DNA from: Myxococcota bacterium
Lineage (GTDB): Bacteria; Myxococcota_A; UBA796; GCA-2862545
Assembly (NCBI GenBank): GCA_039208735.1
Contig: JBCCQY010000214.1
Span: forward strand, 1-12,868
Reading direction: 5' to 3'
Length of the DNA stretch: 12,868 bases
Shown here piece by piece: positions 716 to 10,489 of the stretch; the stretch's first letter is position 1, and the number at the start of each line of letters is the position of its first letter. The position numbers and the translations under genes are program-made. The notes beneath the pieces are model-generated. The model had not been told where the DNA came from and made no database searches. It saw nothing but the letters and a program-made list of their open reading frames with translations.

Positions 716-1372
716 GTGTTCAATTTCCTGTTCAAGGACAAGGCGACCATGGTGGCCCGCGACCGTGCGCTACCCGGCCACGACACTCGCCCCTACGCGA
801 TTGGCAACGAGCACCATGTGCTGGGCACTCCCATCGAGGGTCCGTTTCCCGAGGGGATGCAGGTGGCTCAATTTGGGATGGGTTGTTTCTGGGGTGCGGA
901 GCGCAAATTCTGGCAGTTCGACGGGGTGTACAGCACTTCGGTGGGCTACGCGGCTGGCTACACGCCAAACCCGACCTACCAAGAGGTCTGCAGCGGCCAA
1001 ACGGGCCATAACGAAGTCGTGCAGGTCGTGTTCGACCCCACGAAGATTCGCTACGAACAGCTGCTGAAGACGTTCTGGGAGAACCACGACCCCACGCAGG
1101 GCATGCGCCAGGGCAATGACGTGGGCACTCAGTACCGGTCTGGGATTTACGTTCACTCCGACGAACAACGCAAGGTCGCCGAGGCGAGTCTGGCCATGTA
1201 CGCCAAGGAACTCGAGCGGGCGGGGCACGGGAGCATCACGACGGAAATTGTGGATGCCGGACCCTATTACTACGCCGAGGATTATCACCAGCAGTATCTC
1301 AGCAAGAACCCAAATGGATACTGCGGTTTAGGCGGAACTGGAGTCTCGTGTCCCGTCGGATTGGATGTCTGA
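716..1372 (+). CDS. msrA: Peptide-methionine (S)-S-oxide reductase MsrA
   Basis: Catalytic GCFWG motif, plus [37 protein letters not shown] and [29 protein letters not shown] (resolving cysteines). GTG at 716 is preceded by RBS GAGGAGG (705-711). Confidence 0.98.
1285..1372 (+). repeat. Resident msrA 3' tail (attL/attB-like copy; no upstream boxes)
   Basis: 88 bp TCACCAGCAGTATCTCAGCAAGAACCC...TTGGATGTCTGA. Similarity to the downstream copies starts exactly at TCACCAG. Confidence 0.9.
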
Positions 1373-1731
1373 ACACATCGAACAGCGTGCCAGAGTCCGC
1401 CACTACAGCCACGTTCCAGGCCATGACCTCTGACGAACTGTCCGAACACACCAGGGCTTCCACGATTCTCCAGCGCATCCATGGGCTCATGTCGATCTCG
1501 ACTTCGCTCTACCGAAGGGTTGGACCTGGGCGTTCAATGTCGTGAGGGGCCCGTTGACAGACGAGGCTCGAACAGCGCTATGGCCGTTCGTCACCACGAT
1601 CGTCTACCAGCGGTTCTTCGTGGTTCGAACCACGTGTCGTGATGAGCGCGCATTCTGCATCGAGATCGTGTCGCGGGCACGACGGAATTCGGCTTCCATG
1701 TCGTGGTCGTGCTGATCGGGGACTGATTTCC

Positions 1732-1776
1732 TTCGAGCAAATTGATCTCTCGATTCGAGCAGTTAATCTGCCCGAC
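1732..1776 (+). promoter_or_regulatory. Putative promoter/operator of the nucleotidyltransferase operon (possibly leaderless)
   Basis: Imperfect direct repeat TTCGAGCAAATTGATCT / TTCGAGCAGTTAATCT. TTGATC (1742-1747) is 16 bp from TAATCT (1764-1769), and ATG lies 7 nt further with no SD. The segment is also conserved in the relic at 9319-9360. Confidence 0.5.
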
Positions 1777-2346
1777 ATGTACAACAATGCCGAGCTGGAC
1801 GAGGCGCTCACAGCGCTGGGCGAAATCCTGGCAGACCGAGGTGAGACCTTCGACATCGTCGTGATCGGAGGTGGAGCCCTGTTGCTCCTCGGCCTGGTCG
1901 AACGCGCCACCAAGGACCTGGACGTGCTCGCCCGGATCGAAGGTGATGCTTGGGTTCGAGCCGAGCCGTTCCCGCCCGCACTCGAAGCCGCCGTCCATGA
2001 CGTCGCTGCCGCATTGGATCTGTCGGACGACTGGCTGAACCCAGGCCCCACCGATCTCCTCGACTTCGGACTGCCGAGCGGGTTCGCAGACCGCGTCTTC
2101 TCGGGCCTCACGGTCCGACTGGCATCGCGTGATGATCAAGTCGCGTTCAAGCTCTACGCCGCCGCAGATCAGTGGCCGAGCGAGAGCCGTCATCTGTCCG
2201 ATCTTCGAGCGCTCGCTCCGACCCGCGAGGAGTTGTTGGCCGCCGCCCGCTGGTGCCGTACGCACGATCCGTCGAGCGGGTTTCGCAATGTACTCCTGCT
2301 GCCCGTGCTCACGGCCCTTGGGGTCGAGGATGCCGACGATGTCTAG
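1777..2346 (+). CDS. Nucleotidyltransferase, DUF6036/AbiEii-like (putative TA component)
   Basis: VVIGGGALLLLGLVERATKDLDVL (GG..A...R.T.D.D pol-beta-type NTase motif), WLNPGP and KLYAAAD. Start chosen at ATG 1777 after the putative -10. Confidence 0.8.
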   Translation: MYNNAELDEALTALGEILADRGETFDIVVIGGGALLLLGLVERATKDLDVLARIEGDAWVRAEPFPPALEAAVHDVAAALDLSDDWLNPGPTDLLDFGLPSGFADRVFSGLTVRLASRDDQVAFKLYAAADQWPSESRHLSDLRALAPTREELLAAARWCRTHDPSSGFRNVLLLPVLTALGVEDADDV

Positions 2347-3277
2347 CGAGCGCATTCGAGCGGCCGTACGCGACCTCTGGTGGAGCGCCTTCACGGAGCT
2401 GGGCGTTCCGGGCGTCGTCCGTCATCACCAGGATGTAGCTATCGACCCGGAGCCGCTGGTCGTCACGGCTCCCGGCATCTTCGGTCTCGATGCGCGTCTG
2501 CGCGATCAGATTTATGCGTGGTGTGCGACCCACGGATCGAAGCTCTCCGCCAGCCGGCTACAGGGCCTGGCCCGCCAGCTCGGCGCCGGAGCGCAATCCG
2601 ACTTTGCGAGCTTCGCGGCGACGCTACGAGCAGAGGCCGACGTCAGGTGGTCGGTCGCAGGCGAGCCCTGGCCCCACCCTCCTGAGGTCCGTCCGCCGCG
2701 ACTGCCACTCGAACGACCTGCGCTGATCAGACTGCGGCTCCGGGCGCTCTGTGGCGTGGGAGCCCGAGCTGACGTACTGTGCGAGCTGCTGCCGAAGGGC
2801 GACTGGGTGCGAGCCGCTGATCTGGCTTCGGAGGGCTACTCCAAGCGCTCCATCGCGAACATTCTCGCGGAGCTGGCCGCCGCCAACATCGCTCGGAGCA
2901 GGCCCGTGGGGAACGCGATCGTGTATCGGCTGGGGCATGCCGATCTCCTCGGGCAGCTCGTCGGACCGCGCCCCTCTGCGTTTCCGAGGTGGCGCCAGGT
3001 GGTCGCTCTCGCGCTGGAGGCCACCCGCTTGGCGGAGCTGGAGGCCAAGCCGGCGACAGTGCGACGGGTCGAAGCGACGCGTGTCCGCGAGAACCTCGCC
3101 CAGACGGCGTCCGAGCTGGGAGTGGCCGAACCGCCTCCGACTCGCGGCCATCCCGATGGATGGGCAAGGCTCGTCGAGTGGTGCGCAGACCAAGTGGAGA
3201 CCTTTGCATGTGGAGCCTCGGTCGCCATGCAGCCAACATCGTCGTCGGTCGAGCCCGGACAGGAAGAACGAGCCTGA
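2339..3277 (+). CDS. Conserved HTH-containing protein, partner of the nucleotidyltransferase (putative antitoxin/regulator)
   Basis: Overlaps the NTase stop (ATGTCTAG) and has GAGG upstream. LWWSAFTELGV...IDPEPL N-terminus; central wHTH-like segment RLRALCGVGARADVLCELL...RAADLASEGYSKRSIANILAELAAANIARSRPVGNAIVYRL. Confidence 0.7.
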   Translation: MSSERIRAAVRDLWWSAFTELGVPGVVRHHQDVAIDPEPLVVTAPGIFGLDARLRDQIYAWCATHGSKLSASRLQGLARQLGAGAQSDFASFAATLRAEADVRWSVAGEPWPHPPEVRPPRLPLERPALIRLRLRALCGVGARADVLCELLPKGDWVRAADLASEGYSKRSIANILAELAAANIARSRPVGNAIVYRLGHADLLGQLVGPRPSAFPRWRQVVALALEATRLAELEAKPATVRRVEATRVRENLAQTASELGVAEPPPTRGHPDGWARLVEWCADQVETFACGASVAMQPTSSSVEPGQEERA

Positions 3278-3284
3278 CGACGCT

Positions 3285-3442
3285 TTGGACACTTCGCCGG
3301 GTTCCTTGGACACTTCGCTGGATAGTCGGCCTTAAACCTGGCCCAGGAGTACTGTCACCAGCAGCATCTCAGCAAGAACCCAAATGGATACTGCGGTTTG
3401 GGCGGAACTGGAGTCTCGTGTCCGGTGGGGTTGGACACTTGA
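3285..3442 (+). repeat. Composite att-like site R1 (two boxes + core + msrA tail)
   Basis: TTGGACACTTCGC at 3285 and 3306; core GTACTG-TCACCAG-CAGCAT with TCACCAG at 3355; tail encodes [28 protein letters not shown]. Confidence 0.95.
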
Positions 3443-3455
3443 CTGACGCTGCCGC

Positions 3456-3643
3456 CTACGTGGGGCCTGCTTTCGTATGGTGCGCCTGATCTGGGTGACT
3501 TGGGAGAGCCGGGTACTTTCGCTCCAGCTGCCCAGCCTCGAGGGTTGTGACGGTTCGGGAAAGCGCGGAGGCGATTTGCTGGGGAGTCCGACATGGTCCT
3601 GAACAGAGACTCAGGATCGCAGCCTCGACCTCCGAGCGCGGCG
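3456..3643 (-). pseudogene. C-terminal remnant of a wHTH-tailed ATP-binding/AlbA-type or Fic-like protein
   Basis: RTPRSEVEAAILSLCSGPCRTPQQIASALSRTVTTLEAGQLERKYPALPSHPDQAHHT resembles the 'IL.LC....T..EIA..L.R....L.R.YP..P.HP.Q.Y' C-terminus. It has no start of its own and is fused to another relic. Confidence 0.55.
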
Positions 3644-3819
3644 TCCGGATCCTCACCGATAGAGCGCACCTGTCCAGAAGCTCTTTGGTCCTCGTCTCCA
3701 GCTCGAAAGCCCACAACGCGTTCGGCCCTCCCCAGTTGTTGGGGTCGGTGACCGAACCGCCCGGCGCGATCCATCCCCCGGGATCTTGCACCGCGTACGA
3801 CTCGATGAAGTCGTCACTG
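3644..3819 (-). pseudogene. Relic of the 3' end of the hypothetical gene at 7579-8313
   Basis: Aligns with 7570-7747 (SDDFIE.YAVQ.PGGW.APGGSVTDPNNWGGP.ALWAFELET). It is 176 vs 178 bp, so a 2-bp deletion frameshifts it, and the 5' part is absent. Confidence 0.9.
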
Positions 3820-3834
3820 TCACGTCGTGGGAAC

Positions 3835-4257
3835 TCACTCCCCTGCATCCAGGTCCTTGGCAAGGACCAAACCGTGTGGCACGTAGCTCGGCACCCAGGA
3901 GTCCTCTGACAACAGTGGAAGTCCCTCGCTCAGGGCCTGTGCGACGAGCATCCGATCAAAGGGGTCCCGATGACCTCCCTCTGGATAAGGCAGCACCGCC
4001 ACGCGCTCGGCATGCGCTCGCCTCACATCGAGAATCGTGTAGCCACGGGCTGCAACCTCACGCGCGAAGAAGTCGGCTGGGGAGACGGGGAGCGGAAGCT
4101 TCCCGATCCCGTACTTGATGCTGATCTCCCACAGTGAGGCAACGCTCACGACCAAAACGTTCCTGCGATCTCGAAATAGGGCCCGGGTGGCGCCTCGAAG
4201 CCGAGGATCCCCAATCGCCGCCCATAGCAGAACGTGCGTATCGAGGAGGATTCTCAT
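3835..4257 (-). CDS. vapC: VapC-family PIN domain toxin (Sll0205-like)
   Basis: MRILLDTHVLLW...VSVASLWEISIKYGIGKL...HRDPFDRMLVAQAL.EGLPLLSED; 4-bp ATGA overlap with the upstream antitoxin. Confidence 0.93.
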   Translation of the reverse strand: MRILLDTHVLLWAAIGDPRLRGATRALFRDRRNVLVVSVASLWEISIKYGIGKLPLPVSPADFFAREVAARGYTILDVRRAHAERVAVLPYPEGGHRDPFDRMLVAQALSEGLPLLSEDSWVPSYVPHGLVLAKDLDAGE

Positions 4258-4508
4258 CGATAGTCCGCGAAGTCGTCGAGAGGATCATCCCAGTCCTCCG
4301 GGAGAACGAAAGACCACCCGCCAATAGGACGATGAGCATCCTCGGCGGACGAATGGGCAGGCCCCTCGACCAGTCGTCGAGCCTGTGCAACGAGCGTGTC
4401 CGTGACGAACGCAGTCAGTGTCGAGTTGGTGAGTCGGGCGGCACGCTCGATCAGCTCCTTCTTTTCCGGCGAGATCCGCAGCTCCAGACGCGCGGTAGAG
4501 CCTGGCAC
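4254..4508 (-). CDS. Antitoxin: DUF1778-like RHH N-terminus with an acidic VapB-type tail
   Basis: TARLELRISPEKKELIERAARLTNSTLTAFV is DUF1778/TacA-like; the C-terminus is RPIGGWSFVLPEDWDDPLDDFADYR. GTG start with RBS AAGGAGG. Confidence 0.85.
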   Translation of the reverse strand: MPGSTARLELRISPEKKELIERAARLTNSTLTAFVTDTLVAQARRLVEGPAHSSAEDAHRPIGGWSFVLPEDWDDPLDDFADYR

Positions 4509-4517
4509 GAGGCCTCC

Positions 4518-4542
4518 TTGTACGGCAATGCCAGCCGTACAA
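4518..4542. promoter_or_regulatory. Palindromic operator upstream of the antitoxin
   Basis: Perfect inverted repeat TTGTACGGC-N7-GCCGTACAA abutting the RBS. Resembles the TGTACGG...CCGTACA operators of KacA/AtaR-type DUF1778 RHH antitoxins. Confidence 0.8.
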
Positions 4543-4589
4543 TCAGGCTAGCACGCTCGACGGCAGGCGGGAAGGGCCGGGAATCGGTC

Positions 4590-4747
4590 TTGGACACTTC
4601 GCCAGATCTCTTAGACACTTCGCTCGATAGTATGGTTCAAAACTGACTTGGGAATACTGTCACCAGCAGTATCTAAGCAAAAACCCAAACGGCTACTGTG
4701 GTTTGGGCGGAACCGGTGTATCCTGCCCAGTAGGTCTGGACGTCTGA
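4590..4747 (+). repeat. Composite att-like site R2
   Basis: Boxes at 4590 and 4611; perfect core ATACTG-TCACCAG-CAGTAT (4654-4672). The tail encodes [28 protein letters not shown], identical in protein to MsrA despite 16 nucleotide differences. Confidence 0.95.
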
Positions 4748-4798
4748 CGGCGACGACCGAGAACCGCAGGAGCTGCGACCTGAGAGAGGAGTGAGCGC

Positions 4799-5299
4799 GT
4801 GAATCCGGCAACCAAGGTTGTCTTGCGCTACATCTTTCCATCCGAGGTCGAAGTCGCGTCGGATGTCACCATCGTCCGCTCGGACTCCCATCTGCCCGCC
4901 TGGCTGCGCGACGCCAACCCTGGCGGGTGGCATCCCATCGAGTGGGACGAGCTGCTCGATGGACGCCTCGGTCCCTGGGCAATGGTCGTGGATTGCGAGC
5001 GAGTCATTTCGATCGCCCACACGCCGGTTCCCATGACCGACGAGGTCGCAGAGTGCGGCGTATGGACCAAGCCCGGCTCGCGCGGTCGGGGCCATGCAAC
5101 GGCGAGCGCCTCGATGTGGGCCGAGGTCCTTCGACCGTCGGGTCGGCGCCTCGTCTATCGAACGACCGAAGACAACCTTTCCTCTCGGCGCGTCGCCGAG
5201 AGGCTACGGCTGCGTCTCGTCAGCCGCACCGAGGAGCCTCGCGACGACCACGTCAGCAACCTGCACCCGCTCAGCTCGGTCCGGCAGGTCAGCGAGTAG
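4799..5299 (+). CDS. GNAT family N-acetyltransferase
   Basis: AECGVWTKPGSRGRGHATA (acetyl-CoA binding motif A) and YRTTEDNLSSRRVAERL (motif B). GAGGAG lies upstream of the GTG. Confidence 0.85.
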   Translation: MNPATKVVLRYIFPSEVEVASDVTIVRSDSHLPAWLRDANPGGWHPIEWDELLDGRLGPWAMVVDCERVISIAHTPVPMTDEVAECGVWTKPGSRGRGHATASASMWAEVLRPSGRRLVYRTTEDNLSSRRVAERLRLRLVSRTEEPRDDHVSNLHPLSSVRQVSE

Positions 5300-5377
5300 C
5301 GCCTCGACTGCCGACGCCCTGACGACGATCGCGCGTACCCGCACGCCGCGCTACGCTCGGGCTTGTGGAGGCCAGAG

Positions 5378-5596
5378 ATGGTGGACTTAATCATCGTCGA
5401 CCCTGACATCATGCGCGGCAAGCCCGTAGTCGGCGGCACACGCGTGACCGTCGAGTACATCCTCGACCAGCTCGGGCACGGGCACTCGATCGACGAACTC
5501 CTCCAGGGGCACCCCCGGCTGACCCGGGAAGGCATCGAGGCTGCAGTTCAGTACGCCATCGACGCGCTGCGCATGGAACGCGTGGTTGCACGTTGA
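5378..5596 (+). CDS. DUF433 domain antitoxin-like protein
   Basis: IIVDPDIMRGKPVVGGTRVTVEYILDQLGHGHSIDELLQGHPRLTREGIEAAVQYA; RBS GGAGG at 5367-5371. Confidence 0.93.
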   Translation: MVDLIIVDPDIMRGKPVVGGTRVTVEYILDQLGHGHSIDELLQGHPRLTREGIEAAVQYAIDALRMERVVAR

Positions 5597-5955
5597 ACAT
5601 TGTCGCCGACGAGAACCTGCACCGGGGCATCGCGGATCGCCTTACCACCGACGGACACGACGTCGTTCATGTTGGCGACTTGTCACCAGCGATCACAGAC
5701 ATCGAAGTTCTGCGTCTGACCGTGGAGCGAGAAGCGTTGATGATCACCAACGACCTCGACTTCGGAGAGCTGGTGTTTCGTGGAGCTGCGAGCCATGCGG
5801 GTGTCCTGTTGGTTCGCTTGGCTGACATGGCGTTCGAGGACCAAGCGGAGTTGGTCTCGACGACAGTTACCGATCACGGAGAGGCCCTCGAAGGCGCGTT
5901 CTCCGTTCTGACCGCGCGCAAGCTGCGAATTCGCGGTGGGTCAGCCGGATCATGA
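5593..5955 (+). CDS. DUF5615 family PIN-like protein (VapC45-like toxin)
   Basis: IVADENL...GHDVVHV...DIEVLRL...LMITNDLDFGELVF...HAGVLLVRL; TTG start overlaps the DUF433 stop. Confidence 0.9.
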   Translation: MNIVADENLHRGIADRLTTDGHDVVHVGDLSPAITDIEVLRLTVEREALMITNDLDFGELVFRGAASHAGVLLVRLADMAFEDQAELVSTTVTDHGEALEGAFSVLTARKLRIRGGSAGS

Positions 5956-5981
5956 GCCTTGGGCCGCGCAGTGATGCCGGT

Positions 5982-6067
5982 TTGGACACTTCGCCGGACC
6001 CCTTAGACACTTCGCCAGATAGCGGCCTTCGAACCTGCACCAGGAAAACTGACACCAGCAGTCTAAG
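5982..6067 (+). repeat. Composite att-like site R3 (msrA tail deleted)
   Basis: Boxes at 5982 and 6003; degenerate core AAACTG-ACACCAG-CAGTCT at +70 (6052). Similarity to msrA ends after about 15 bp. Confidence 0.88.
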
Positions 6068-6116
6068 GACTTCCACCTGGAGCGTTCGGGAAGAGCCTGG
6101 AAGCGAGCATCGGCTG

Positions 6117-7532
6117 TTACGTCACCTTGACTTGCCAAACCGCGCGTGGGTCCTTGGTTGAATTCCCCACCCATTCGATTAGACCCACCTCTTGCAACGC
6201 CCGGAGCCTCCGCAACAGGGTCGGCCTGGAGACGCCCGTCTGCTCCACGAGAGCCCCCGTACCGGCCGGGCCTTCTCGGAGCACCCGGAGGAGGTCGCGC
6301 TCTTCTCGGGGAAGTCGCCCCTCCAGTTCGACGTCGATGGGCTCGGAGGACAGGACCAGGCGCACGGAACCGGCCGTCTGGTAGTAGCGGGGCTCCACGA
6401 GGCCCGCGAGACGCATCTCCTCGAAGATGCGTCGAATGCCCTCCCCCAACTCCTGTCCGAAATCGAGATCAGCGCAGACACGGGCGATCCTTGGATTTCG
6501 AGCGAAGCGCGAGATCCCGACCGGATCGTTGAGGTCCACGAGCCCGGGAAACCTCCCCGGACTCTCGACTTCGATCCGGTCATCGAAGATCTCGATCCGG
6601 ATGTGGTCGCCCGCTACGCTGTAGGCGCGGTGAACAACGGCATTGACGAGCCCTTCCAACCACGCGTCGCGAGGGACCACCCCGATGGAGTCGAAGCGGC
6701 CGGCGGTCGTCATGGCCCGACGCGTCGGAACGAGTGCTTCGATCGCTCGCCGGGCGTCTTCGAGCATCTTCGGGATCGGCCCCTCGAAGTGCCGATCCTC
6801 AGCGAGTTGCTGCCGACTGCCTGCGCCTCGCTCTCGACCACGGTACCGGAGCACCCTGACGCGAGCCTCGGGTAGGAGCCGCTGGGGATGGTTCCCGAAG
6901 AGGAGCCAGCCGGCCACGGTGACCCGTCCGTCGGACTTGAGGAGTCCCCGCGCTACGAGGAGCCGCCTCGCATCTGGATGGCCGACGGCCTCGGCATACT
7001 CGCGGAGCAGCTCGATCGAGAGATCCGAGAATGCCGCTCCGTCGATCGGGTTGACCTCGAAGCTCGCCTGTCCCTTCTCGTAGAGCAGCTCCAGACGTTG
7101 CGAAAAGGTCAGGCGCCGGTTCTCGTCACCGACACGCAGCAAGACGTCGTCCTTGACGGTCGCATGAACCTGGGTGCTGGGGTCGACCCTGACGACAACG
7201 AGGTGATTGGCCTGCCCCTTCGCATCGATACACGCGATCTTCGAGAAGCTGGAACGGAGAGGAGGAACCGCGAAGTCGAACGTCGCCTGACGCCACGCGT
7301 TCTCTGCCTGTGCTCCGACGTGGTCCGTTCCTTCGATACGCCCCGAGGATAAGCCGATGACGAGGTGTCCTCCCTCGGCATTGGCCATCGCGATCGCTGC
7401 TTCGGCCAGCTCTCGGGCACCGATGCGAGCACTCTTGCGATCGAACCACTGGTTCTCGGTGAGAGAGAGGGTGGCGAGGCCGACTTCATCCGGTGGAAGG
7501 GCGAGGGCTCGGCGGACGCGGGCGGTGGACAT
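6117..7532 (-). CDS. Schlafen/AlbA_2 domain + HATPase_c_4 (RecG-C-like) + C-terminal wHTH protein
   Basis: ENQWFDRKS...AMANAEGGHLVIG (AlbA_2); EGLVNAVVHRAYS...IEIFDDRIEVESPG...RNPRIA...QELGEGIRRI (HATPase_c_4); GVSRPTLLRRLRALQEVGLIEWVG (wHTH). Confidence 0.92.
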   Translation of the reverse strand: MSTARVRRALALPPDEVGLATLSLTENQWFDRKSARIGARELAEAAIAMANAEGGHLVIGLSSGRIEGTDHVGAQAENAWRQATFDFAVPPLRSSFSKIACIDAKGQANHLVVVRVDPSTQVHATVKDDVLLRVGDENRRLTFSQRLELLYEKGQASFEVNPIDGAAFSDLSIELLREYAEAVGHPDARRLLVARGLLKSDGRVTVAGWLLFGNHPQRLLPEARVRVLRYRGRERGAGSRQQLAEDRHFEGPIPKMLEDARRAIEALVPTRRAMTTAGRFDSIGVVPRDAWLEGLVNAVVHRAYSVAGDHIRIEIFDDRIEVESPGRFPGLVDLNDPVGISRFARNPRIARVCADLDFGQELGEGIRRIFEEMRLAGLVEPRYYQTAGSVRLVLSSEPIDVELEGRLPREERDLLRVLREGPAGTGALVEQTGVSRPTLLRRLRALQEVGLIEWVGNSTKDPRAVWQVKVT

Positions 7533-7536
7533 GAAA

Positions 7537-7559
7537 CTACTCTAACAATTTTAGAGTAG
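7537..7559. promoter_or_regulatory. Palindromic operator/promoter immediately upstream of the AlbA_2 gene
   Basis: Perfect inverted repeat CTACTCTAA-N5-TTAGAGTAG in an AT-rich patch, 4 bp from the ATG at 7532; no SD. Confidence 0.7.
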
Positions 7560-7578
7560 CGATAGCATATCCGGATCC

Positions 7579-8313
7579 TCACCGATAGAGCGCTCCTGTC
7601 CAGAAGCGCTCTCCGGTCTTTGTCTCCAGCTCGAAAGCCCACAACGCGTCCGGCCCTCCCCAGTTGTTGGGGTCGGTGACCGAACCGCCCGGAGCGAGCC
7701 ATCCCCCAGGACCCTGCACCGCGTACCACTCGATGAAGTCGTCACTGGTGAAGAACCGATCGGTGAAGTTGTTCAGCTCGAACAGGTCACCTTTCGTGCG
7801 AAAGTAGCCGCCGAACCTCACGACACGGAGGGGTTGGCCGTGATGGTTGGTCAGCGTGGTCGAGCAATACGATCGATCCGCTGGACGAGCGCCAGAGCGG
7901 CCAAAGTCGACGCTGACCCTGCTTGCTCCGGCCAGAACCTCGGATTGCGACAATCGGTGTTCGACCGGCTCTCCTTCGAGCGGTTGAGATCGGGCGCCCG
8001 GCGGAAGGTGACCGATCGTCCTCGGCTCGAAGTCGACCACGACTTGGTTCCCGTAGGTCGCGACGTACGCTCGAACGTCGAGAAGCACAGCTGTGTCGCC
8101 ATCGGCGAGTCGCAGGTGGCCGGCGTCGAAGCCGTGCGCCTCGACCCAGTTTGGTGGGTCGTCCGAGACCGACACCCAGAGCTTATACCTCCCAATCTCA
8201 CCGGTGTAGTAGGGGAGCCTCGGCAATACCGCAGGCGAGCGGAGGAGCACGAGAGCGCCGAGCCCTCCAACGACGAGGATGCCCAACGCTACCACCGCCA
8301 GAACCGGCTTCAT
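7579..8313 (-). CDS. Hypothetical protein with N-terminal membrane anchor/signal
   Basis: MKPVLAVVALGILVVGGLGALVLLR hydrophobic N-terminus; GAGG upstream of ATG 8313. Coding status is supported by a diverged homologous relic at 3644-3819. Confidence 0.75.
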   Translation of the reverse strand: MKPVLAVVALGILVVGGLGALVLLRSPAVLPRLPYYTGEIGRYKLWVSVSDDPPNWVEAHGFDAGHLRLADGDTAVLLDVRAYVATYGNQVVVDFEPRTIGHLPPGARSQPLEGEPVEHRLSQSEVLAGASRVSVDFGRSGARPADRSYCSTTLTNHHGQPLRVVRFGGYFRTKGDLFELNNFTDRFFTSDDFIEWYAVQGPGGWLAPGGSVTDPNNWGGPDALWAFELETKTGERFWTGALYR

Positions 8314-8443
8314 CCAGGCCTCACATCCGTTGTCCACCGGCATCATGGCATTGGACCCCGTTAACGTCGAGGTGAGCACCGCCACCACCTCGATCGGGCG
8401 CAGCCAACAAGAACATCACGCGATCAGTGACCACGGAGTGTGA

Positions 8444-8601
8444 TTGGACACTTCGCCACATTCCTTGGACACTTCGCTAGAAAGTCGAGCTTGAAACTGG
8501 TTTGGGAATACTGTCACCAGCCGTATCTCAGCAAGAACCCAAATGGATACTGCGGTTTGGGCGGAACCGGAGTCTCCTGTCCGGTCGGGTTGGACGTCTA
8601 A
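8444..8601 (+). repeat. Composite att-like site R4
   Basis: Boxes at 8444 and 8465; core ATACTG-TCACCAG-CCGTAT with TCACCAG at 8514; tail encodes [28 protein letters not shown] (TAA stop). Confidence 0.95.
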
Positions 8602-8658
8602 TCGATCCCAGATCGCGTACTCGTGTGCAACACCTTCCTTCCAGGGGCGTCGAGGCCC

Positions 8659-9156
8659 TCAGGTTCCAAGCTGGGTCGATGGCACCCCGAACAACATCCG
8701 CCGTTCGACTGGATCGACCTTCAACACGACAACCTCGACGGCCTCTGCGACACGAGGCAGGTCGGAGCCTTCCGGCAGCCTGGAGATGTGAAGGAGACCC
8801 TCCATCTCCTCCTCCGGGCTCACAATCGCGCCGTAGGGCGCCACGAGAGTCACCCGACCACGCACCTTCGAGCCTTCGGCGTAGCGCTCCACGGCGTCCG
8901 CCCACGGATCTGGCCGTAGTTGCCGAGTACCGAGCAAGACTCTCCGGTCGTCGACCAGCACCTTGAGAACCACGGTCAGCACTTGGTCGCCGATCTCGAA
9001 GCAGTCCTTGGGGGACGGATTCCTGGTTCCCCAGCTCATTTCGTGAAGTGGGACCAGCCCCGTGAACTCACCCAGATCGATGAACAACCCGAAGTCGGTG
9101 ACTCGGACCACAGTGCTCGCGATTCGATCCCCGGGTCGCCATTGCGGCACTCTCAT
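8659..9156 (-). CDS. Small protein with two S1 RNA-binding domains (RpsA-like repeats)
   Basis: GDRIASTVVRVTDFGLFIDLGEFTGLVPLHEMSW...GDQVLTVVLKV...RRVLLGTRQLRPDPW...GSKVRGRVTLVAPYGAIV...EGLLHISRL...VEVVVLKVDPVERRMLFG. Confidence 0.88.
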   Translation of the reverse strand: MRVPQWRPGDRIASTVVRVTDFGLFIDLGEFTGLVPLHEMSWGTRNPSPKDCFEIGDQVLTVVLKVLVDDRRVLLGTRQLRPDPWADAVERYAEGSKVRGRVTLVAPYGAIVSPEEEMEGLLHISRLPEGSDLPRVAEAVEVVVLKVDPVERRMLFGVPSTQLGT

Positions 9157-9318
9157 CGCCTCGTGGGAGGATTGCCGCGCCCACGCCGGACCAGCGCACC
9201 ATCTTCAACGAGACGCTTCAACAGGTGCGATGCCTGGTCCCGACCGAGGTGGCAGAGGCGAACCACATCACGACGGAGAATGCCGCCATGCCCGGGAACC
9301 AGAGGCAGAGGTTCGTCT

Positions 9319-10047
9319 GAGCAGATTGATTTCCCGATTCGAGCAGTTGATCTGCTCGATATCTACGGTAACGCGGAACTGGCACAGGTTCCTCGGTCTG
9401 GTCGAGCGCACCACCAAGGACCTTGACGTTCTCGCCCGGATCGAGGGCCAACTGATCTCCTCGACTTCGGCCTTCCGAGCGGGTTCGCCGAACGAGTCGA
9501 GTCACGCGTCTTCGCGGGCCTCACGGTCCGACTCGCATCGCGATGATCAGCTTGCAGGAGCGAAGCGACGAAAGCTGACCGCGTAGGCCTGCAGGCGCGG
9601 AGCGCCGAAGGCCAGCGGTGAGCAGACTCGCGCAAGCGTTGCTTGCTGCTGATCAAGTTGCCTTCAAGCTCTACGCCGCCGCGGATCAGTGGCCGAGCGA
9701 GAGTCAGCACCTCTCCGATCTTCGAACCCTCACGCCGACTCGCGCGGAGCTGTTGACTGCCGCCCGCTGTTGCCGATCGCACGATCCGTCGAGCGAGTTT
9801 CGCGACGTACTCCTACTACTGGTGCTTGCTTCTCTTGGCGTTGAGGACACGCATTCACCGAGTTGGGCGTTCCTGGCGTGATCCGCCATCATCAGGAGGT
9901 GGCCATCGACCCAGAGCCCTTGATCGTCACAGCTCCAGGCGTATTCGGCCTCGGAGCCGAGGCCGATGTCCGTTGGTCGGTCGCAGGGGAGCCCTGGTCT
10001 CATCCTCTCGAGGTCCGTCCGCCGCGATTGCCGCTCGAACGGCCTGC
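9319..10047 (+). pseudogene. Decayed relic of the nucleotidyltransferase + HTH operon (homologous to ~1735-2721)
   Basis: Collinear blocks: promoter, LGLVERTTKDLDVLARIEG, PTDLLDFGLPSGFA, DQVAFKLYAAADQWPSES..., ELGVPGVIRHHQEVAIDPEPL, AEADVRWSVAGEPW...LPLERPA. Start ATG is changed to ATC, with several internal deletions and one insertion. Confidence 0.92.
9544..9655. mobile_element. Miniature structured insertion (REP/MITE-like) with duplicated TGATCA
   Basis: 106 bp extra relative to the intact NTase gene. TGATCA occurs at 9544-9549 and 9650-9655, the ends read TGATCAGC...GCTGATCA, and there are two internal 28-nt hairpin modules. Confidence 0.7.
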
Positions 10048-10122
10048 ACGGTACCTCGATCGGCATGCTGCCCGCAGCCTCATGGGTCGATCCCGGGTGA
10101 CAGGAACTGGGCTGATGTGCCT

Positions 10123-10246
10123 CTGGACACTTCGTCAGATTCCTTAGACGCTTCGCTCGATAGTCAAGCAAGAACCTGGCCCACAAACCTTGCCACCAGC
10201 AATGTCTTCAGCAAGAACCCAAGTGGATACTTCGGTTTAGGCGGAA
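10123..10246 (+). repeat. Composite att-like site R5 (degenerate)
   Basis: Boxes CTGGACACTTCGT (10123) and TTAGACGCTTCGC (10144); degenerate core at 10193; msrA tail has a 1-bp insertion and substitutions and is truncated after GGCGGAA. Confidence 0.88.
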
Positions 10247-10252
10247 TCTGTT

Positions 10253-10372
10253 TTCCGCCTGGAGCGTTCGGGAAGAGCCTGGAAGCGAGCATTGGCTGTC
10301 ATGTCACCTTGACTTGCCAAACCGCGCGTGGGTCGTTGGTTGGAAAGTCGCCCCTCCAGCTCGACGTCGATG
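10253..10372 (-). pseudogene. Relic of the 3' end and flank of the AlbA_2 gene
   Basis: 10253-10342 matches 6071-6160, and 10343-10372 matches 6310-6339 (about 149 bp deleted between the blocks). Confidence 0.9.
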
Positions 10373-10489
10373 CGTGGTCCGTTCGGTACTCGTGGAATCG
10401 GGGTGTTCCTTGCGGTCCCGTTCTCCAATCAGTATGCAGTGGAGACAAAGAGTGTCCAGACTATGGACAAACCCGGAGAGGAGACCACA

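Follow-up and report, generated by a model that had tools for sequence, protein, structure and literature searches.

Integrons, and the clusters of attC sites lacking integron integrases (CALINs), hold ordered cassettes of one to three genes that are rich in toxin-antitoxin and stress functions, with the newest cassette at a fixed insertion point. The attachment (att) sites of phage lambda and its relatives consist of a 7-bp overlap between inverted repeats, one arm bearing direct boxes and the other an inverted box. We have analyzed a locus that resembles both in part. Its DNA is contig JBCCQY010000214.1 (C214; 12,868 nucleotides, the whole stretch analyzed and hereafter the window) of a 9.4-Mb metagenome-assembled genome (MAG; GCA_039208735.1, 92.7% complete) from a Myxococcota bacterium (GTDB lineage Myxococcota_A; UBA796; GCA-2862545). 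The ~9 kb behind msrA, the gene for peptide methionine sulfoxide reductase, are split in this window by five composite sites into five integrase-less units. We read the array as small cassettes without integrase that were inserted into the end of msrA at a single 7-bp core and, on a balance that tips modestly in favor of this, as having been moved singly by a tyrosine integrase borrowed from genomic islands.

Stacks of recombinase-less elements are known from other protein genes. The streptococcal cis-mobilizable elements (CIMEs) lack a recombinase, retain attL and attR, span 1.2-13 kb with their cargo, and form stacks, built by a tyrosine integrase, at a protein gene's 3′ end, with the most decayed element farthest from the target (PMC5704250, PMC7563491). 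By definition they are decayed derivatives of integrative and conjugative or integrative and mobilizable elements (ICEs, IMEs), and the survey gives two or three elements per tandem and no tandems of one family. In staphylococci, ACME (arginine catabolic mobile element) and ccr-less cassettes at rlmH/orfX are described as modules between direct repeats that are said to use a neighbor's recombinase, and the order of elements in the composite islands is taken as chronology (PMC7029739, PMC13739063). The microcin H47 island of Escherichia coli is small, carries no recombination genes, and excises and integrates by means of functions supplied in trans (PMC3191183). A preprint on relaxase-less islands deals with integrase-bearing elements (10.64898/2026.01.13.699239).

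A first, sequence-only reading of the window had not recognized the array as a described system. That overstates its novelty, since recombinase-less stacks at protein-gene 3′ ends, oldest outermost, are described for the streptococcal CIMEs and the staphylococcal islands. What is new here is the msrA target, a new integrase clade, and a class-wide family of smaller, long-lived recombinase-less cassettes; the principle was already known. Literature searches, reaching few of the subscription papers, listed no work on msrA-targeted integrases or arrays.

Anatomy of the array

The composite sites in the window (Table 1) have a fixed geometry. In all five, a pair of 12-bp boxes is spaced 21 bp apart and a 7-bp core follows box 1 at 70 bp, in line with the sequence-only reading, which had described five copies of one composite site. 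The copies are not all complete: the 88-bp msrA tail is full at sites 1, 2 and 4, partial at site 5 and deleted at site 3. The last 28 codons of msrA itself are contributed by the tail of unit 1. Units 1 to 5 measure 2070, 1305, 1391, 2463 and 1679 bp, and none encodes a tyrosine recombinase, bearing out the earlier description of 1.3-2.5 kb units without such an enzyme. Decay grows outward: unit 5 carries pseudogenes and unit 6 is a remnant, ending at 10372, and the outer boundary of the array has been deleted.

Within its genome the array stands alone. A relaxed box-pair pattern matched seven times in the 9.4 Mb, at the five window sites and at two core-less look-alikes, so that a box pair with a core was found nowhere else; a box-pair score of at least 5 was reached at 0 of 3000 random positions. 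No second array of this anatomy emerged when the whole genome was searched (23 k-mer rows, judged by eye). A box-like inverted sequence lies outside the array at 10430-10460, upstream of a DUF4397 gene, and scores under the profile threshold.

The array is not an integron. It is similarly an ordered array of one- to three-gene cassettes with the newest next to a fixed insertion point, but an attC-type motif is present at none of the five sites, as the sequence-only reading had stated, and folding z-scores for both strands of three sites are +0.2 to +1.7, giving no sign of an attC hairpin. There is no resident IntI, in that no recombinase is encoded in the window and three of the msrA-adjoining integrases described below, when scanned, had no TIGR02249 match. 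Unlike integron cassettes, the units bring their own promoters and orientation, and their insertion restores a protein gene. As to Xer/dif systems, the msrA-clade integrases score at most 26 bits on XerC and XerD models, whose cut-offs are near 330, and the core is 7 bp long; no direct search for dif was made.

Since the array lies on a 12.9-kb MAG contig with repeats, it might be an assembly artefact or a local tandem duplication. The sites differ from one another, as does the cargo, and the same sites are present in 28 genomes. Logan contigs of metagenome run X1 show 0 differences to the window at an even depth of 6.9-10.2, and bridge the cores of sites 1, 3, 4 and 5 by at least 31 letters (sites 0 and 2 are not bridged under that rule); X1 is possibly the source sample and so is not independent. 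We give this explanation next to no weight.

Table 1. Features of the msrA array in the window (positions of the whole stretch)
Feature	Position	Strand	Evidence or remark
msrA (peptide methionine sulfoxide reductase), target gene	716..1372	+	PF01625, E 3e-64; start from codon-model gene call
Site 0 core, attL-like; 7-bp predicted overlap inside msrA	1285..1291	+	native core
Unit 1 (2070 bp): tail, nucleotidyltransferase and partner gene, boxes, core; without left box	1285..3361	+	
Nucleotidyltransferase (AbiEii/DUF6036-like), unit 1	1777..2346	+	PF08843, E 2e-6; PF19502, E 1e-5
Partner gene, unit 1; no Pfam family	2339..3277	+	winged-helix leads only
Site 1: boxes 3285-3296 and 3306-3317; core 3355-3361; displaced tail complete to the stop	3285..3442	+	
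Decayed 3′ piece of the second gene of unit 4 inside unit 2 (mosaic)	3644..3819	-	repeat families D6, D19; 92-95%
Unit 2 cargo: TacA1-like antitoxin 4254-4508; PIN toxin 3835-4257	3835..4508	-	PF08681, PF01850
Site 2: boxes 4590-4601 and 4611-4622; core 4660-4666 flanked by 6-bp inverted repeats; full tail	4590..4747	+	
Unit 3 cargo: GNAT acetyltransferase 4799-5299; DUF433 5378-5596 and DUF5615 PIN-like 5593-5955 pair	4799..5955	+	
Site 3: boxes 5982-5993 and 6003-6014; core 6052-6058 (one mismatch); tail deleted	5982..6058	+	
Left-arm remains of unit 4: half inverted box and conserved ~40-bp stretch	6061..6102	+	complete in G001 and runs X2, X3, X4, X6
Unit 4 cargo: AlbA_2/RecG-C/HTH protein 6117-7532; uncharacterized protein 7579-8379	6117..8379	-	
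Site 4: boxes 8444-8455 and 8465-8476; core 8514-8520; full tail	8444..8601	+	
Unit 5 cargo: two-S1-domain RNA-binding protein	8659..9156	-	PF00575, E 2e-26
Decayed second copy of the unit 1 gene pair	9312..10047	+	five pieces at 79-90%
Site 5: boxes 10123-10134 and 10144-10155, both degenerate; core 10193-10199; partial tail	10123..10246	+	
Remnant of a sixth element resembling unit 4, with the left-arm stretch and the end of a gene	10253..10372	+	repeat D9, 94%

The core as predicted crossover point

We compared native and displaced sites in 41 same-genome pairs. Agreement is 88-100% at core positions 0 to +5, 56-95% at positions -4 to -1, and 5-44% at positions -20 to -5. Divergence between native and displaced copies starts just upstream of the core and unit boundaries fall at the core (TCACCAG), and on both counts the sequence-only reading, with its units inserted at the core inside msrA and its replacement tails, held up. 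The core appears to behave as the crossover point, the position of which we infer from this profile. At site 2 and in the class consensus, inverted core repeats flank the 7-bp overlap, as they do in lambda-family core sites.

The site-2 tail differs from the native tail by 16 synonymous and 0 non-synonymous changes. Across six tails, synonymous divergence is 0.20-0.86 and non-synonymous divergence 0-0.23, the most changed being the metagenome tail L129. The tails have been kept as protein rather than as DNA and are not fresh duplicates; because synonymous divergence so far exceeds non-synonymous, each tail likely once ended a working msrA. The two cysteines in the msrA tail are presumably its recycling cysteines.

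These divergences bear on the idea that the 88-bp tails and shared arms served as RecA anchors for homologous recombination after DNA uptake, with the boxes mere leftovers. The units are indeed mosaics with shared internal segments, and no integrase of the relevant kind was found in the genus (G000-G004; G000 is the window genome). However, tails that differ at 20-86% of synonymous sites are poor homology anchors, the boundaries lie at the core, the box spacing is fixed across the class, and a dedicated integrase clade sits at the site. We judge this route improbable.

Occurrence across the class

A query of the 28-residue tail matched 133 of 182 genomes of the class. By our own count of the table, 41 genomes have at least two matches and 14 at least three, some of the two-match cases being msrA paralogues. 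In a sample of the phylum, at least two matches occur in 13 of 59 matching genomes of the class versus 4 of 205 outside it (own count), and none of those 205 has three or more. Regions for closer study were taken from a subset of genomes picked for multiple tail matches; in their tabulation, matches above E 1e-4 were dropped, sites less than 76 bp from a contig start were left unscored, two sites were added by hand and two were relabelled native by hand. Displaced tails are present in 28 of the 34 tabulated genomes, 22 of which have at least one boxed site and 11 at least two. The box pair is found at 40 of 61 displaced sites, compared with none of 31 native sites and 4 of 3000 positions drawn at random, a count that is partly circular because 18 of the scored sites had served to train the box profile. 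Among the 21 displaced sites without a box pair are decayed copies as well as sites of other element families that share this core. Searching the genome and its relatives with a site profile, as had been proposed, thus revealed the geometry to be class-wide.

Box-pair scans gave one match among genome contigs (the G001 contig), eight in metagenomes, of which one is real (L129) and seven are tandem repeats or unrelated, and two in viral contigs, both unrelated. Core-pattern scans returned 14 genome and 32 viral stretches; of these, L196 was recognized (the site in G024). Among 80 msrA loci from other phyla, a partial second tail occurs in one.

Several loci depart from the common pattern. L243, L275 and L239 (G045, G148, G124) have another arm type at the same core, with an inverted-plus-direct box layout, and family f6 (L356-L361; G141, G143) has displaced tails without a box pair and with a common motif ~112 bp downstream. 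In G013, a single-contig genome with no displaced tail, a strong inverted box lies behind native msrA (L277, near 18640), to all appearances a left arm left behind. In a Gaiellaceae genome (Actinomycetota), a 3.6-kb insert of small genes in the msrA tail (L078:10650-14228) has no integrase match and ends in a partial tail copy, and at four further Gaiellaceae loci (L045, L051, L064, L111) the site is empty. This insert is likely an independent case, since both its repeat and its crossover point differ.

Spread and reordering of integrase-less units

The content and order of units vary among the relatives of the window host (G001-G004) and in metagenome runs, as anticipated. Unit 4, fourth in the window, is first behind msrA in G001. 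The two copies are 95.4% identical over 2222 bp, and their four-fold-site divergence is 0.12 versus 0.58 in the msrA body; the hosts are 86% identical in rpoB and 73-86% identical in host sequence. Relative to the G001 copy, the window copy has lost its tail and half of its inverted box. The DUF433/DUF5615 pair of unit 3 lies directly behind msrA in G003 (71%), a deleted remnant of unit 1 occupies that position in G002, and G004 has no array. In a microbial-mat run (X3), a contig spans the whole of unit 4 at ~95%, ahead of which lie a further box site, a complete tail and the inverted box, and runs X2, X4, X6 and X9 have the same left arm or cargo joined to other neighbors (Logan matches beyond X1 were compared for four of five other studies). 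In X3, units 3 and 4 (window 5246-8553) have a depth of 107-118 and pieces of unit 1 a depth of 7-18, which could reflect either another host with a diverged msrA or free copies.

Across the class, 28 complete units lie between two tails (885-11828 bp, median ~2.2 kb), and none matches either of two tyrosine recombinase profiles. A HipBA unit of family f12 is 94.8% identical over 1912 bp, both arms included, between G177 and G167, which belong to different genera (rpoB 80.5%). Its counterpart in G171 is internal, 2004 versus 2005 bp long and 77% identical. A 1621-bp unit (1621/1621 bp) common to G177 and G169 is 74% identical, with both ends kept. These 74-77% pairs could be vertical, in which case the ends would have been kept for a long time without an integrase.

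The copies at ~95% with the same junctions, in hosts that are 80-86% identical in rpoB, indicate that integrase-less units do move, and that they have spread horizontally and been reordered. They also largely refute the proposal that each unit came as a full island, lost its integrase and never moved thereafter. Such decay in place fits the absence of the left box from all five window units and the decayed state of units 5 and 6, but given the shared junctions we regard it as highly improbable.

An integrase clade behind msrA

An element with the same boxes plus a tyrosine integrase, sought on the suggestion of the sequence-only reading, exists in the class. In seven genomes (G124, G171, G175, G128, G060, G169, G176) a tyrosine integrase is encoded directly behind native msrA on the same strand. 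Neighborhoods were checked for 30 of the 40 integrase matches listed: seven adjoin msrA, two are same-clade fragments at contig ends, and 21 are weaker matches without msrA within 1.5 kb. The msrA-adjoining integrases form one clade with 100/100 support (6 of 24 tree rows), and a GTDB-wide scan for this clade found seven loci, all apparently in members of the class. The catalytic set R242, H325, R328, H351 and Y360 is conserved (alignment A3), and the integrase profile matches lambda Int, XerA and XerD in the PDB, core-binding domain included, leaving ~90 N-terminal residues unmatched. With these extra residues, a putative arm-binding region, and with its att layout, the system resembles the lambda family; it differs in that one arm overlaps the coding tail, and no accessory-factor sites or excisionase were identified.

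The interval from the msrA stop to the integrase start holds an inverted box followed by a direct box, both of the box family seen in the units. The G175 island measures 21.9 kb and is closed by a displaced tail whose boxes are degenerate. A DUF3854 primase, along with restriction or other defence genes, is encoded on islands in G175, G126 and G171. Among 68 proteins of these putative helper islands, several of which are cut by contig ends, relaxase and type IV secretion system (T4SS) families were not found, and 27 helper proteins searched against PHROGs for the capsid-redirecting or packaging genes of phage satellites gave integrase, primase and helicase matches only. G060, G124, G169 and G171 each contain helper as well as small units.

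Two further elements bear on this group. A distant integrase (~30% identity, outside the msrA clade) lies at the right end of an element with the same core and different repeats (L254:11349-12853; G178:C124). A 6.7-kb integrase-less first unit shared by G008 and G041 at 98.7% (L256, L257) includes a 240-bp piece similar to the core region of the helpers, and is a possible intermediate between helper and cassette.

Eight tyrosine recombinases of G000 were considered as helpers and set aside; they have no 20-22-bp direct repeats within 8 kb and no msrA-clade match. This search was confined to tyrosine recombinases. The best PF00589 score in G000 is 70.7 bits, with no match of XerC/XerD strength, against 125-166 bits in G001-G004; such a gene may be missing from the bin.

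These helpers set the msrA system apart from its closest relatives. Ccr enzymes are large serine recombinases acting with short repeats. At msrA, by comparison with the staphylococcal composite islands, neither Ccr nor rlmH is involved: the adjoining recombinase is a tyrosine integrase, the sites comprise a 7-bp core, box pairs and an 88-bp replacement tail, and the units are far smaller. The microcin H47 island differs as a single 13-kb element with several crossover segments, whose recombinase is not on a cognate same-site island and which forms no array. The likeness to CIMEs is greatest, in that recombinase-less units are stacked at a protein-gene 3′ end and decay outward. Here, though, five to six units of one family are stacked, length is conserved across genera, the target is msrA, and the helpers carry integrase, DUF3854 primase and defence genes with no relaxase match, giving no sign of the ICE or IME origin that defines CIMEs.

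How the cassettes may move

Comparison indicates that the cassette ends are those of the islands: on the left the core, the replacement msrA tail and an inverted box, on the right two direct boxes and the core. By analogy with lambda-family integrases, the island integrase would use the boxes as arm-type binding sites, with strand exchange taking place at the core. An incoming circle would restore msrA with its own tail and push older units outward. Internal deletion of islands is the likely origin of the cassettes, which then likely persisted as independent lineages. Action of the integrase in trans, circular intermediates and the deletion origin are all parts of the model rather than observations.

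The earlier formula for a unit (tail, cargo, boxes, core) proved incomplete. Intact units also carry a left arm, an inverted box after the tail that is often followed by a forward box ~60 bp further on. The left inverted box is kept in 10 of the 28 complete units, compared with 75 of 3000 by chance. In keeping with the claim that older units are pushed rightwards, distal sites tend to be the more decayed: in five of the six contigs with at least three sites the last site scores worst (our own reading), but this is not so in several two-site contigs.

Our preferred reading, single movement of cassettes by a borrowed integrase, has a serious competitor in CIME-type accretion. On that account the units are deleted islands, immobile alone, which spread only in cis, through joint excision with an integrase island that inserts ahead of them and subsequently departs or decays. 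Streptococci provide a described case of such a route (PMC5704250, PMC7563491). Excision of such a composite runs from the left end of the helper to any downstream right end, and what it needs is what is commonly kept, namely the right arms, the left box being lost in 18 of the 28 complete units. The outward decay in five of six longer arrays points the same way, as does the failure to see a single-unit circle in X1 contigs. Against it, the remaining 10 units keep both arms, and random decay does not predict units of the same length with both ends across 23-26% divergence. Moreover, tandems in the streptococcal survey reach three elements at most and none consists of a single family, compared with five or six units of one family here. 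We consider accretion in cis the less probable account, albeit one of real standing.

Several observations weigh against single movement. The lost left boxes include all five in the window. No excised circle or empty-site joint was found in X1 contigs (15 of 40 and 15 of 24 joints examined), and a metagenome contig one unit long (L129), possibly a circle, has no terminal overlap. A cassette in first position may have been left behind by a departed helper, so that position is no proof of single-unit insertion. Since the units are mosaics, other recombination also shapes them. The msrA-clade integrase was not found in the window genome or its genus (80-95% complete), helper and small units of the same genome sit on different contigs, and the circularity noted above tempers the box count.

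The window array itself is probably dormant, because the left box is lost from all five units and no integrase was found; its units would not now be freely mobile. It could likely at most leave jointly with a newly arrived island.

Cargo

The nucleotidyltransferase of unit 1 is likely the toxin of a type IV-like toxin-antitoxin pair. Its partner matches unnamed clusters at 0.96-0.97, with MarR and HTH_24 rows under 0.9. An 84% identical copy of the unit 2 cargo lies behind the same site in metagenome contig L129. The GNAT protein of unit 3 (4799-5299) has weak similarity to kasugamycin acetyltransferases AAC(2′)-II, 49 of 510 bits and far under cut-offs. A dispersed hairpin repeat (9544-9655), between two TGATCA sites, is inserted in the decayed nucleotidyltransferase copy and has 76 blastn matches genome-wide, 46 of them at least 70 bp long. 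PADLOC matched one of ten window proteins, so a defence role for the window cargo is not supported. Pfam searches of these 10 and 72 other unit proteins found no relaxase or integrase, and one DDE transposase. The cargo of the complete units is mixed, comprising toxin-antitoxin pairs, a few defence genes, regulators, metal and oxidative-stress genes, and metabolism.

Significance

Integrons are the standard example of an ordered, exchangeable stock of small genes, and the msrA locus suggests that ordinary island ends and a visiting integrase can reach the same result. The system spans a whole class of uncultured Myxococcota-type bacteria. A broader proposal, which we advance tentatively and hold to be somewhat short of an even prospect, is that it amounts to a class-wide, integron-like gene-capture platform built from double-stranded lambda-type att sites. 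Recombinase-less cassettes of 1-3 kb would circulate between genera as their own lineages and stack chronologically in msrA, each rewriting its C-terminus, to be activated by the integrase of a passing island.

From the locus come a new integrase clade whose target in a protein gene is defined, a complete predicted att anatomy, and naturally occurring substrates with one arm or two. A few kilobases of DNA suffice here to test whether recombinase-less islands are relics or active parasites. Tools that seek integrases or attC sites miss arrays of this kind, which also serve as pointers to toxin-antitoxin, defence and stress genes.

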